NCBI GenBank assembly: GCA_964570875.1
Contig: CAZMZE010000021.1
Span: 4,987 to 68,986 of the forward strand
Direction: 5' to 3'
Length of the DNA: 64,000 nucleotides
Origin: an uncultured Dehalococcoidia bacterium
Lineage (GTDB): Bacteria > Chloroflexota > Dehalococcoidia > Lucifugimonadales > CATQGZ01
The position numbers and the translations under genes were made by a program. Positions within the stretch are counted from its first letter, which is position 1; each line of letters begins with the position of its first letter. The notes beneath the pieces are model-generated. The model was not told the origin of the DNA. It saw only the letters and a program-made list of their open reading frames with translations, and did no database searches. Of this stretch, positions 6,806 through 10,114 are shown in pieces.

Positions 6806-9800
6806 ATGATACTAAGAAACACAATAAATCCCATAAAATTGATACGTGATTTTGACTTCTCAGCTAAATCTGATAGTGATTTAGAGAATAGGCTTAGAGC
6901 TTTAATACAATCTTCAGCTAATAGGAAAACACAGACTTTTGAACCATATGCGATTATAGCCGAAATTATTGACCGAAAACTCGGGATATGGAAAATATTT
7001 GAATCCACAACGAACGTCGGTCCCTTAAATAAATATCTAACACTTGCACAGATACTAAGGTCAAAAGCTCCATTTAAAAACCATATTGAATACGACAAAG
7101 ACCCTCGATTTTTTGATAGCAAATCGTTTACAGAATCCTTAGAACCCATTCTGAACAAGTGGAGATTAAATTCAGCGGAAAAGAATGTAGTCAAAACTTT
7201 GATATACGTTGGAGAACAAGTTGGTACCCACAAGGCAAATATTTATTTACCTGGGCAATTTTACCAATCGTTCAGAAATTTAGACGTGGAAGATATGTTC
7301 TCTTTCCGCATCACAGATTCGCAACTTATGTCTGCGCTGATGGTCTACGATGGGTCCATCGTAGAATTGGATGCAGGAGAGGGCAAAACCGTTTCTGCTG
7401 GTATTCCTGCACTTATACATGCTCTAAACGGCAAATCCGTCCACGTAATTACATCCAACGACTATTTGGCCAAAAGAGACTGCGAACTGCTTTCCCAAAT
7501 GTACAACTCGGTTGGTGTTTCATCTGGATATATCCAAAACCATATGGAAAACCGAGAGAGACAAATTGTCTATCATAAAGATATCGTTTACAGCACAATC
7601 AGAGAAATCGGTTTCGACTACCTCAGAGACAATATTTCAACTGAATCCGGATCCGCAGTTACAAACTCCCTTGAAATAGCTATTGTTGATGAAGCAGATC
7701 ACATCCTTATTGACCAAGTTCTCTCACCCCTCATAATTTCGGGGGAATCTATAACCAATCGCAGAGCATTCAAAAAATCCCATGAGTTTATAAAAGAAAT
7801 CTTGTATCTCCAAAAACAGGTTGTAAAACAATTGGAAGTTGAAGCAACCGATGCAAAATACTCGAAAAACTTTACATCAATCCTGGCAAAACTAGCTTTG
7901 GCCGACCCGAGAAACTATCTACTCAAAGACAAAATTATTGATGCCAAGATGAGAAAACTAATCACAGAAATATTGGAATCAGTTACTTTTGACGACCAAC
8001 CTAGCTCTCCACAAGACCCATATTTCATCGTGGAGTCAAATTTCACATCAGTAATGTTGACTCGCCGTGGGCAAGAATTACTGGAACTCAGACTCGGCAA
8101 CATATTTGACCTTGGTGAAGATTTGTCATACGAGTCATCTGAAGAAACTCTCAGGCGAAACGACTTGCAATATTCAAGAATCAACCAAATTCACCAGTTA
8201 TTAAGAGCATACGTACTTTTACGTAAAAACTTTGACTATGTTGTAACTGGCGGAAAGATTGTTTTGGTTGACCAAATGACAGGACGTACTCTGCCCGATA
8301 ATCGATTCCAACATGATTTACACGCAGCATTAGAAGCTAAAGAAAACCTAGAAATACTAGACCAATACGAAACTGTTGCTCAAATCTCCATCCCTGGACT
8401 TGTTGGCAGATATCAACAGATTTCAGGACTTACCGGAACAGCTATATCAGCTCGAGATGAATTCACTCGGATGTATGGATTATCAGTTAAAAAAATACCT
8501 CCATCCATGTTCTCTCTTCGAGTCGACAAAGAAAGCCAAATAGCATCAAATAAAGTAGGGAAATTCCGTTCAATCATAGACAGCACCCGGGCGGCAAACA
8601 ATGTTGGCCGCCCAGTCCTAATAGGCACTAACTCTGTAGCTGAATCTTACGAACTCAGCACTGCTCTCAAAAATCATGGCATAGACCATATGTTATTGAA
8701 CGCTATCAATGATTCAGAAGAGACAAGAATCGTAAGAGACGCCGGGAACCTAGGGTCAGTGACCATAGCTACCAATATGGCAGGACGTGGGACCGACATT
8801 GTAGTAAAACCAGATATCAATAAAGCTATTGTCAATCGATATACGGAGTTAGTCACTGACCTGTTTAATAATGGCGCTACTGAAGTAAATATTAAATGCG
8901 GGACAGAATCAGAATACGAAGTACTTAAAACCGTACTATCTCAATCTCACTATACATACAAACCCAACAAATCCTTGAAATTTCATAATTTCAGTTTAAC
9001 GGTTCTTCCAAACCCAATTTCACATTCTCACAAGAAACATCTAGACCCGATGTCTCTTGGAAAAACCGGCCAAAAAGCCATCACATTATGGAGCACCGTT
9101 TTGAGTATCTCCTTGGACAAAATATTGTCCATAACAAATCATCTCAATCAAATCACCAAAGATAGACCCTCAGCCAGATACCAAATTGATTTTGGTCTTG
9201 GGATGTTGGTGATTGGAACAGAATTGAACAAATCTCGGAGAGTGGATGACCAACTCAGAGGGCGTACAGCAAGACAGGGATCATTCGGGGCCACAAAATT
9301 TGTACTTTCCTTGAAGGATCTCCCCCTTGATAAATATGGTGCATTTGGATTCAGTGGAAACGATAGCAACAATGGACATAGCATCAATAACTCACGTCAA
9401 ATTTCTAAGATTCAAAAACTACAAGATATTGTAGAGCAGCAAGAAAACCTAGACCGGGCATTCATCCAAAATTATTGGAAACTGATGGATCATCAGACCA
9501 TTTCATACTATTCAGCTCGCCAAGAAATTCTAGAATCATCTATTTTCCAAACCACATATCCAAAATTGGCACAAGTTTTTTCTAAAACAATTGTTGACAG
9601 GCATTTTCCTAAAATGCGCGTCCGAGATTACCAGAAGCAATTCCAGCAGATGAGCGCCGATGTCACAAAGTCTCTGAATTTGCCGATTTCTGATTTATAT
9701 GGTTCCCCTATTCCAGACTTACAAAGTGAACTGGCTATTCGCTTACTCAATTCAATTGATAAGGTAAACGCACAAATAGAACCTGAGCAAATTGACTACG

Positions 9801-10114
9801 TTGGTAAAACAGTCTTTTTACAAACTGCTGACAACCTTTGGAAAGAACATATGATACTGATGGAAAATCTATTTCAAAGTTTTTCGTCCGGCATGGATGG
9901 AATTGCTAACTCTTTGGCAAGATTTAAATTTGAGGCATTCCAAGAATATTGCAATTTCCAGGCACTAGTTATTGAGCAATTTTTATGTAATTTGGTTAAA
10001 TCAACAAATACAGACCATCTAGAGGATCGTCAACAATCAGTGCAACTCAGCACCGACATTCGATCAATGTTGGAATTTACTTTAATGAATGAAACAAAAA
10101 TGGAGGTGAATTGA
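6806..10114 (+). CDS. highly divergent SecA-like ATPase (SecA paralog, no SEC-C tail)
   Basis: 1102 aa. SecA hallmarks appear in order: LDAGEGKTVSAGIPALIHALNGKSVHVITSNDYLAKRD (cf. E. coli [38 protein letters not shown]), GFDYLRDN, IVDEADHILIDQVLSPLIISG, FDYVV..GKIVLVDQMTGRT, LTGTA, TIATNMAGRGTDI, DDQLRGRTARQG and LWKEH. It has an N-terminal extension and a large NBD2 insertion, and ends ...NETKMEVN without a zinc finger. Confidence 0.85.
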   Translation: MILRNTINPIKLIRDFDFSAKSDSDLENRLRALIQSSANRKTQTFEPYAIIAEIIDRKLGIWKIFESTTNVGPLNKYLTLAQILRSKAPFKNHIEYDKDPRFFDSKSFTESLEPILNKWRLNSAEKNVVKTLIYVGEQVGTHKANIYLPGQFYQSFRNLDVEDMFSFRITDSQLMSALMVYDGSIVELDAGEGKTVSAGIPALIHALNGKSVHVITSNDYLAKRDCELLSQMYNSVGVSSGYIQNHMENRERQIVYHKDIVYSTIREIGFDYLRDNISTESGSAVTNSLEIAIVDEADHILIDQVLSPLIISGESITNRRAFKKSHEFIKEILYLQKQVVKQLEVEATDAKYSKNFTSILAKLALADPRNYLLKDKIIDAKMRKLITEILESVTFDDQPSSPQDPYFIVESNFTSVMLTRRGQELLELRLGNIFDLGEDLSYESSEETLRRNDLQYSRINQIHQLLRAYVLLRKNFDYVVTGGKIVLVDQMTGRTLPDNRFQHDLHAALEAKENLEILDQYETVAQISIPGLVGRYQQISGLTGTAISARDEFTRMYGLSVKKIPPSMFSLRVDKESQIASNKVGKFRSIIDSTRAANNVGRPVLIGTNSVAESYELSTALKNHGIDHMLLNAINDSEETRIVRDAGNLGSVTIATNMAGRGTDIVVKPDINKAIVNRYTELVTDLFNNGATEVNIKCGTESEYEVLKTVLSQSHYTYKPNKSLKFHNFSLTVLPNPISHSHKKHLDPMSLGKTGQKAITLWSTVLSISLDKILSITNHLNQITKDRPSARYQIDFGLGMLVIGTELNKSRRVDDQLRGRTARQGSFGATKFVLSLKDLPLDKYGAFGFSGNDSNNGHSINNSRQISKIQKLQDIVEQQENLDRAFIQNYWKLMDHQTISYYSARQEILESSIFQTTYPKLAQVFSKTIVDRHFPKMRVRDYQKQFQQMSADVTKSLNLPISDLYGSPIPDLQSELAIRLLNSIDKVNAQIEPEQIDYVGKTVFLQTADNLWKEHMILMENLFQSFSSGMDGIANSLARFKFEAFQEYCNFQALVIEQFLCNLVKSTNTDHLEDRQQSVQLSTDIRSMLEFTLMNETKMEVN

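Follow-up and report, generated by a model that had tools for sequence, protein, structure and literature searches.

Here we describe a SecA-like protein of 1102 amino acids that is encoded in a 64,000-nucleotide stretch of contig CAZMZE010000021.1 from an uncultured Dehalococcoidia bacterium; this whole stretch is referred to as the window below. The protein belongs to a distinct clade of SecA paralogues that was encountered in marine SAR202 alone, an uncultured group of Chloroflexota that is abundant in the deep ocean. At the level of the lineage its gene is an accessory paralogue of the housekeeping secA gene, and it is embedded in a conserved gene arrangement together with the genes for a predicted lipoprotein (LP259) and for the proteins U471 and U319. 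Judged from its sequence, the protein should be an active ATPase and translocase that is present alongside canonical SecA and does not replace it, and it probably powers a dedicated cell-envelope pathway rather than general secretion. As its role we tentatively propose, by analogy with known accessory SecA systems and with a likelihood that we place somewhat below even, that it is a dedicated motor exporting or handling the adjacent LP259.

6806..10114, plus strand: SecA-like ATPase, 1102 amino acids, with a DEAD motor (NBD1/NBD2), PPXD, HSD, HWD and two-helix finger; the SEC-C tail is absent

The open reading frame starts with ATG, and the motifs quoted for it in a preliminary description of this DNA were all recovered from the 1102-residue translation at the positions to be expected. 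These are GEGKT (residues 191-195, with K194 as the Walker A lysine), NDYLAKRD (218-225), GFDYLRDN (269-276), DEAD (295-298), PLIISG (308-313), LTGTA (542-546), TIATNMAGRGTDI (653-665), PISHSHKKH (737-745), DDQLRGRTARQG (814-825) and LWKEH (1011-1015), and the C-terminus reads ...MNETKMEVN. Exactly 130 residues lie between GRGTDIV (660-666) and GLGMLVIGTE (797-806). Four SecA domains were matched by Pfam in canonical order, namely SecA_DEAD with 232 bits (E = 1e-68, cut-off 24.6), SecA_PP_bind with 60 bits (E = 3e-16, cut-off 23.5), P-loop_SecA with 154 bits (E = 4e-45, cut-off 27) and SecA_SW with 55 bits (E = 2e-14, cut-off 26.7). The preprotein-crosslinking region (PPXD) had been called weakly recognisable beforehand, which is not borne out by the SecA_PP_bind match. 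No Pfam match to SEC-C (PF02810) was obtained for the SecA-like protein or for any of the 40 further members of its clade, in agreement with the zinc-finger tail having been reported as missing.

The clade was delineated by a search of 5.8 billion proteins. About 40 clusters related to the SecA-like protein were obtained, comprising proteins of 963-1132 amino acids that are 31-41% identical to it and reach 534-833 bits, whereas canonical SecAs scored at most 386 bits. All of these roughly 40 members contain the four SecA domains. Their length bears out the remark that the protein is larger than known SecA2 proteins, which have about 780 amino acids. The residues of Walker A, Walker B, TGTA, GRGTDI and the RGRxGRQG arginine finger are invariant across the 40-member clade (G191-T195, D295/E296/D298, G544-A546, G660-I665, R820, R823, Q824 and G825). 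The DEAD Walker B, already noted in the preliminary description as a departure from DEVD, proved to be a signature of the clade, with DEADH in 38 of 41 members as opposed to DEVD in 71 of the 77 canonical matches.

Furthermore, the protein was compared with the SecA and SecA2 models of NCBIfam, the cut-offs of which span 725-1493. Every model matched and every score remained below the cut-off: 497 against 800 for TIGR00963, 500 against 814 for NF009538, 365 against 930 for TIGR03714 (the SecA2 of aSec systems), 364 against 725 for TIGR04221, 412 against 1085 for TIGR04397 and 323 against 1100 for NF012136. Other clade members reached 390-593 bits with the models of housekeeping SecA. Thus, the protein is a member of the SecA superfamily that falls outside all curated SecA and SecA2 families. 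In a neighbour-joining tree built on 299 columns of NBD1 and PPXD the clade is monophyletic (bootstrap 100/100), and canonical SecAs, including the SAR202-type fragments introduced below, are separated from the divergent forms by a split that is likewise found in 100/100 replicates, so that the SecA-like protein falls outside the canonical SecAs of its own lineage. The mean Kimura distance between clade and canonical SecAs is 1.12-1.16, compared to 0.54-0.60 between canonical SecAs of different phyla.

One divergent SecA outside the clade deserves mention. A protein of 908 amino acids (P0051/P0188; L088/L089, 10001-12727, GCA_964564735.1) has the N-terminal RRLGIWKIFD insert in a shorter version and also lacks SEC-C. 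Its gene directly follows three EutN/CcmL microcompartment-vertex genes and is accompanied by none of the SAR202 partner genes; owing to this different gene context it was rejected as a member of the module beyond SAR202.

The coexistence of both kinds of SecA was observed directly on a SAR202 contig (L052, JAGWBI010000004.1), where a canonical secA gene lies 6 kb upstream of the SecA-like gene. The N-terminus of this second SecA is canonical (RHYDVQ, MKTGEGKT, DEVDNIL), and the fragment scores 251 bits with a canonical SecA but 99 bits with the protein of the window. Since L052 carries both genes, the SecA-like protein is a paralogue and not the housekeeping SecA of the lineage. A search with the 234-residue canonical N-terminus of L052 returned only fragments, named at their source as Dehalococcoidia, Chloroflexota or "SAR202 cluster bacterium", which are 60-85% identical to the query. 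According to BLAST, three canonical fragments of the lineage share about 51-53% identity with SecAs of other phyla and only 37-43% with the clade. A SAR202-type canonical secA gene (L090) encodes SEC-C, and in one metagenome-assembled genome (MAG) named SAR202 the canonical secA follows rpoB-rpoC; within 10 kb of the two canonical secA loci inspected, a SecA-like gene was not found. Taken together, scores, tree and L052 uphold the core of the preliminary description, namely that the protein is an accessory paralogue of SecA in which the ATPase motor is intact, and neither the housekeeping SecA nor a known SecA2. That description had also left room for an orthologous housekeeping SecA in a lineage without a second secA gene; at the lineage level both genes are present.

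Three observations concern the annotation of these genes. In the low-coverage long-read contigs L090 (10001-12668) and L091 (10001-12589) the canonical secA is split by frameshifts (e.g. into 329 and 557 amino acids), and such splits probably account in part for the many short or 'partial' SecA entries of the lineage. Clade members, for their part, are labelled plain SecA in at least two sources (JGI/IMG; KEGG K03070 / COG0653 on a Tara Oceans gene). A protein of 974 amino acids (P0187), considered as the canonical SecA accompanying the module of L027, was rejected as it is the SecA-like gene product of L027 itself.

The AlphaFold2 (AF2) model of the SecA-like protein, computed from the clade alignment, has a pLDDT of 80.5 and a pTM of 0.79. 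It has the SecA fold including PPXD, HWD (914-988) and the two-helix finger (993-1027 and 1033-1065), and the HSD is located at 862-910. When the model was compared with the PDB by Foldseek, the top 36 matches were SecA or SecA2 structures, the best being SecY-engaged SecA (6itc_A, TM 0.80). Relative to canonical SecA the protein carries three inserts.

6986..7285, plus strand: NBD1 insertion (residues ~61-160, about 85-100 amino acids), a helical bundle just 5' of the Q motif
7760..7981, plus strand: helical insert in the PPXD stem (residues ~319-392), located by hmmalign and the AF2 helices 319-392
8804..9193, plus strand: NBD2 insert (residues 667-796), located by spacing statistics, alignment and AF2 secondary structure and pLDDT

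The first insert lies between the SecA N-terminal helix (..AIIAEIIDRKLGIW..) and the Q-motif region (FRITDSQL, cf. canonical RHFDVQL). It was placed by comparing the N-terminal sequences by eye and by the AF2 helices at 61-159 (pLDDT about 90), as hmmalign left residues 1-163 unaligned. It carries a clade-conserved LPxEFYxA motif, in which L148 and Y153 are invariant. The extra length of about 85 residues stated in the preliminary description therefore stands, but it represents an internal helical insertion behind a recognisable N-terminal helix and not an N-terminal extension.

A global MAFFT alignment of clade and canonical sequences scattered the inserts, and hmmalign to a canonical profile was used instead. 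By this means the PPXD insert was found to comprise 69 residues at canonical position ~252. An insert at this position is also present in 7 of the 15 canonical SecAs of the profile, with a length of 54-77 residues in six of them, and this shared position explains why long-form SecAs of about 1000 amino acids are the best canonical matches.

The length of the NBD2-insert site varies among canonical SecAs too. The spacing between GRGTDI and QLRGR is 27-84 residues in 75 of 76 canonical SecAs (with one outlier of 179), compared to a clade median of 96.5 and 150 in the SecA-like protein of the window. The distance of 130 residues given before between GRGTDIV and GLGMLVIGTE is correct, although about 50 residues of the insert, including PISHSHKKH, occur in only 3 of 36 clade members. 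The conserved part forms an alpha/beta subdomain (671-734, pLDDT about 90), and residues 740-787 are modelled with low confidence and predicted to be disordered. Within this subdomain, Cys698 (window 8897-8899) is placed at the end of a beta-strand; it is invariant in all 40 clade members and is followed by Gly or Ser. Cys698 may be of relevance given the adjacent adenylating and Cys-His-Asp enzymes.

The gene context was read in 86 loci, and the core order U471 > SecA-like > LP259 > U319 was found across them. LP259 is present in all 86, the SecA-like gene in 85, U471 in 67-71 and U319 in 66-67, and LP259 is directly preceded by the SecA-like gene in 85 of the 86 loci. Around the genes of distant clade members the partners are the same as in the window.

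1324..2739, plus strand: U471, a predicted Cys-His-Asp enzyme resembling transglutaminases and arylamine-N-acetyltransferases (NAT), recognised by an invariant triad and weak Pfam matches
10116..10895, plus strand: LP259, a predicted lipoprotein with signal peptide, A-A-C lipobox, acidic domain, hydrophobic patch and a basic Ser/Arg/Gly-rich tail
10901..11860, plus strand: U319, a conserved protein, encoded directly after LP259 in 66-67 of the 86 loci

In a scan of 185,579 species-representative genomes, LP259 homologues were detected in 204 GTDB species; the 80 matches listed for these all come from MAGs of Dehalococcoidia, SAR202 or Chloroflexota, and many of those MAGs are complete chromosomes. 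The named genomes with the module are likewise all Dehalococcoidia/SAR202 MAGs, and a Tara Oceans assembly contains one sequence at least 90% identical to the SecA-like protein of the window. Among the partners, LP259 shows the highest conservation (55-69% identity across loci, compared to 33-39% for the SecA-like proteins), and no other protein of the module has a signal peptide. The A-A-C lipobox, the basic n-region and the hydrophobic core are present in 81 of 81 homologues that have the WAATDG anchor. The acidic domain has a net charge of -14 over about 105 residues; the tail of about 115 residues consists of 22% Ser, about 15% (14.6%) Arg and 13% Gly, carries a net charge of +17 and contains invariant Gln, Arg, Tyr and Ser positions in spite of its low complexity. 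The hydrophobic patch, with 13 residues and a KD19 of 0.78, is too short for a classical transmembrane helix. A similar architecture is seen in E. coli YjfM (L087, 7388-8026), as both proteins have a lipobox, a small domain, a short hydrophobic patch and a Ser/Gly/Arg/Tyr tail with terminal RGG-like repeats. Homology of LP259 to YjfM/DUF1190 was nevertheless rejected on account of an hhalign probability of 0.3%, and the likeness may have arisen by convergence, or these lipoproteins of DUF350-containing operons may be very remote homologues.

In U471, residues C232, H289 and D304 are invariant even in relatives of 16-20% identity. Weak Pfam matches were obtained to Acetyltransf_2 in 7 members of this family and to Transglut_core in 6, and an Arginase-family domain is fused to the protein in two relatives. 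With 136 representatives among 1.84 billion proteins, this is a small family. Directly upstream of U471 lies a gene for a Kelch-repeat beta-propeller (383-1345), which overlaps U471 by 22 nt at the predicted GTG start of the latter; as no homologue clustered with it from the other 86 loci, it is doubtful whether this gene is linked to the module. For U319, neither a signal peptide nor a transmembrane segment was predicted, searches of Pfam, NCBIfam and the PDB gave no match, and the AF2 model (pLDDT 56) is too poor for interpretation. Profile searches with U471, U319 and LP259 against PDB sequences returned nothing significant.

The genes from 1324 to 11860 of the window are co-directional, and the only gap of more than 20 nt is one of 214 nt before the gene for a K+ channel. 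From the adenylating-enzyme gene through U319 the genes are separated by at most 5 nt or overlap by 4 nt. Between U471 and the SecA-like gene, four accessory genes are found.

2741..3550, plus strand: NR269, weakly nitroreductase-like, in 18 of the 86 loci
3765..4835, plus strand: K+ channel with Ion_trans_2 pore and RCK/TrkA_N domain, in 18 of the 86 loci
4856..6097, plus strand: PaaK/F390-synthetase-like adenylate-forming enzyme, in 25 of the 86 loci
6094..6801, plus strand: U235, in 11-12 loci, overlapping the upstream gene by 4 nt

U235 ends 4 nt before the start of the SecA-like gene, and relatives of known function were not detected for it. Further neighbours, usually next to the module, recur in shuffled order, namely a DUF350 membrane protein (69 of the 86 loci, convergent), DUF3326 (62), an NspC-like decarboxylase (58), DUF4178 (54) and PspA (36), and elsewhere the PaaK-like gene comes after the NspC-like and DUF3326 genes. 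In the window, some of these genes form a divergent block at 31941-36113.

31941-33368, minus strand: DUF3326 protein (tblastn, Pfam)
33301-34509, minus strand: NspC-like pyridoxal-phosphate-type (PLP) decarboxylase, 252 bits, below cut-off
34633-35199, plus strand: DUF4178 protein (Pfam, tblastn)
35223-36113, plus strand: two-domain DUF350 membrane protein (Pfam, tblastn)

In most SAR202 genomes the DUF3326/NspC-like pair is located directly upstream of the SecA-like module, and the DUF4178/DUF350 pair immediately downstream of U319 in convergent orientation; in the window the whole block is 22 kb away. In one genome (L027/L086, OZ253472.1) two DDE transposase genes lie directly 5' of the 974-residue SecA-like gene; this locus lacks U471 and U319 and represents a module that has been disrupted or reduced.

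How these components might work together can be outlined as follows. The SecA-like protein, LP259, U471 and U319 would constitute one functional module, with a mechanism most likely akin to that of SecA2-only systems in Gram-positive bacteria. Here, the motor would recognise the LP259 precursor with its strongly basic signal-peptide n-region and its highly positively charged tail, and this difficult substrate would then be driven by it through SecYEG, the general channel. Docking or regulatory surfaces for other proteins of the module may be provided by two of the inserts, the helical one in NBD1 and the alpha/beta one in NBD2. The module is embedded in a polyamine/PspA-type envelope neighbourhood comprising the genes for the NspC-like, DUF3326, adenylating, DUF350, DUF4178, PspA and K+ channel proteins, to which it would also belong by function. 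We consider LP259 the candidate substrate because it is the sole module protein with an export signal, is encoded next to the motor and has an Arg-rich tail. The secA2 genes of Listeria and Clostridioides difficile also adjoin the genes of their substrates. The link to the envelope and to polyamines is suggested by the gene linkage, which is kept though the order is shuffled, and by the Arginase-fused relatives of U471. For Sec transport, the passage of arginine is reported to be the rate-limiting event (PMC9110029), and this limitation may apply to the LP259 tail.

Several observations weigh against export of LP259 by the SecA-like protein. The canonical N-terminal FGSxNER-type motif is absent from it. 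The finger-loop motif ..QxDPLxxY, which is retained in the SAR202-type canonical SecA, is lost in the clade and the loop varies among its members, and the clade also lacks the C-terminal linker and zinc finger. Thus, elements that tie canonical SecA to membrane and channel are gone or unconserved. No SecY2 or other channel gene is present among the four annotated neighbourhoods. By tblastn, no canonical secA was found within the 64-kb window, so that a canonical copy in the same genome was not observed. Moreover, the clade is fast-evolving (Kimura distance 0.63 within SAR202, compared to 0.35 for the canonical copy), and the presumed substrate is far more conserved than its presumed motor. The succession of acidic domain, patch and basic tail in LP259 also fits a cytoplasmic tail, though the patch is short for a transmembrane helix, and the enzymes of the module (U471 and, in some genomes, the adenylating enzyme) fit a cytosolic modification pathway equally well.

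The lost elements and the enzymes of the module lend weight to a serious, though on balance unlikely, alternative, namely a cytosolic ATPase that clamps or remodels polypeptides. Such an ATPase would grip or thread LP259 by its Arg/Ser/Gln-rich tail, or another client, for modification by U471, for which the nearby polyamine-type and adenylating enzymes would provide amines or acyl groups, or it would assemble a PspA/DUF350-type membrane complex. Besides the lost N-terminal, finger-loop and C-terminal elements, such a role would be in line with the transglutaminase/NAT-like triad of U471 and its two Arginase-fused relatives, with the NspC-like, DUF3326 and adenylating genes that are often co-directional and directly upstream, with the invariant Gln, Arg, Tyr and Ser of the otherwise low-complexity tail and with the invariant Cys of the NBD2 insert. 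Chaperone-like partners and polyamine chemistry are also proposed for PspA operons in PMC11237479. On the other hand, PPXD, HSD, HWD and the two-helix finger are kept and confidently modelled, and the model is closest to a SecY-bound SecA. The export signal is universal in LP259, and the enzymes other than U471 occur in just 18-62 of the 86 loci and in the window partly 22 kb away. Moreover, no member of the SecA family is known to act away from the translocon. We regard it as rather improbable that the SecA clamp has been re-purposed as the core of a new modification or envelope-remodelling pathway that is not coupled to SecYEG, in which the tail may be threaded for polyamination or acylation, or may be delivered to a non-Sec partner such as the two-domain DUF350 protein.

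A general accessory SecA after the manner of mycobacterial SecA2, serving broader, scattered substrates or envelope stress, would render the adjacency of LP259 only partly informative. A second SecA beside the canonical copy and nearby stress-type genes (PspA, DUF350, DUF4178) are what one would expect of it, and known SecA2-only systems use the housekeeping channel for several substrates (for background on these systems see PMC7503281 and PMC4457860). We nevertheless judge this role to be distinctly unlikely, as the linkage to LP259 extends to 85 of the 86 loci with genes close enough for translational coupling, no SecA2 model reaches its cut-off and the protein is expanded instead of trimmed.

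It is very improbable that the protein is the housekeeping SecA of its lineage with merely lineage-typical insertions: the insertions are indeed common to the whole clade and the window holds no canonical secA, but L052 carries both genes, three canonical fragments of the lineage are closer to SecAs of other phyla than to the clade, the tree splits the two with full bootstrap support, and a SAR202-type copy with SEC-C and a copy after rpoBC account for the canonical gene. Least credible of all is a decaying, non-functional duplicate or a recently acquired gene of a mobile or defence island, for although sequence evolution is fast, the GC content is slightly lower over the gene (0.373 at 6001-8000, compared to 0.376-0.447 over the remainder of the window) and one genome with adjacent transposases has lost U471 and U319, the reading frames of 963-1132 amino acids are intact in all 40 relatives with invariant catalytic residues, synteny is kept in 85 of 86 loci, 204 species have an LP259 homologue and the flanks are the housekeeping genes dtd, purL and gltX. 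PADLOC returned nothing for the SecA-like protein and for 7 of the 8 neighbours tested and one marginal match for U319 (Cas11f, E = 0.0065), and on this outcome a defence system was rejected as an explanation of the locus.

Elsewhere in the window, scans for promoters and terminators gave counts at chance level, and the Rfam scan detected only two tRNA genes, at 28566-28637 (plus strand) and 40926-41014 (minus strand). The latter shares 67 nt with the 5' end of the longest open reading frame predicted for miaB (39631-40992, GTG start), the true start of which is therefore probably located further downstream.

Accessory SecAs are so far known from Gram-positive bacteria (Actinobacteria, Firmicutes) as trimmed versions of SecA1, and several pathogens use them to export virulence or cell-wall factors. 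To these, SAR202 adds a family of accessory SecAs that has evolved independently, is expanded and has fixed partner genes. With the SecA-like protein and LP259, it can be studied in a natural setting how a SecA motor adapts to a substrate expected to be hard to translocate, and the clade allows one to test whether SecA can dispense with its N-terminus, finger loop or C-tail. The module furthermore provides a handle on the little-understood envelope systems of DUF350, DUF4178 and lipoproteins. In practical terms, the annotation of clade members as plain SecA can mislead inferences on copy number and secretion from SAR202 MAGs. A function of a SecA-family protein outside the translocon has a real but minority chance and, if true, the re-purposed clamp would be the first of its kind.

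In the literature searched, no prior description was found of a SecA paralogue in Chloroflexota/SAR202 or in DUF350/DUF4178 operons. When compared with known systems, the best match in both sequence and structure is housekeeping SecA (TIGR00963 / PRK12904; Bacillus subtilis SecA, PDB 1M6N/1TF5), which has the same domain set, fold and ATPase motifs and to which the SecA-like protein aligns with 347 bits in the case of B. subtilis; in the structural comparison by Foldseek, housekeeping SecA was matched with E = 1e-42 and a TM of up to 0.80. In contrast to housekeeping SecA, it has three inserts (NBD1, PPXD, NBD2) and a DEADH Walker B, is devoid of the FGSxNER-type motif, SEC-C and the conserved finger loop, and is encoded in a specialised operon; SEC-C, which is frequent though not universal in housekeeping SecAs, is present in most canonical matches but in no member of the clade. 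Long-form canonical SecAs of about 1000 amino acids from Thermodesulfobacteriota and Ignavibacteria share a PPXD insert of about 70 residues at the same position and are the best-scoring canonical matches. Unlike the clade, however, they have retained SEC-C and DEVD together with the canonical N-terminus and a canonical level of conservation, and by their source naming they are housekeeping SecAs. Insertions in SecAs of thermophiles are the subject of PMC7023208.

The SecA2-only systems of Mycobacterium tuberculosis, Listeria and C. difficile (TIGR04221, NF012136, PDB 4UAQ/6SXH) appear to be the best functional analogy, as they too have a second SecA beside SecA1 and no SecY2 nearby. The SecA-like clade differs from them in being expanded to 963-1132 amino acids where SecA2 is trimmed to about 780, in its partners and in its independent origin in Chloroflexota, and the SecA2 models score the protein not only below cut-off but also lower than the SecA models do. 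The aSec SecA2/SecY2 systems of streptococci and staphylococci (TIGR03714) follow a similar logic, with a dedicated SecA, one low-complexity Ser-rich substrate and substrate-modifying enzymes, all encoded at the same locus. However, neither SecY2 nor recognisable Asp1-3 or a glycosyltransferase family is present in the four annotated neighbourhoods of the clade, and the candidate modifying enzyme is instead the Cys-His-Asp transglutaminase/NAT-like U471.

Finally, Ravi et al. 2024 (PMC11237479) describe PspA operons, among them E. coli yjfIJKLMC, with DUF350 (YjfL), DUF4178, a lipoprotein (Ctha_1186 or DUF1190/YjfM), a K+ channel and polyamine enzymes. SecA is absent from the passages of that paper retrieved by term search, and the amide-forming enzyme of the SAR202 module is not an ATP-grasp ligase of the YjfC type. 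The SAR202 neighbourhood likewise combines DUF350, DUF4178, PspA, an RCK K+ channel and polyamine-type enzymes with a lipoprotein of YjfM-like architecture.

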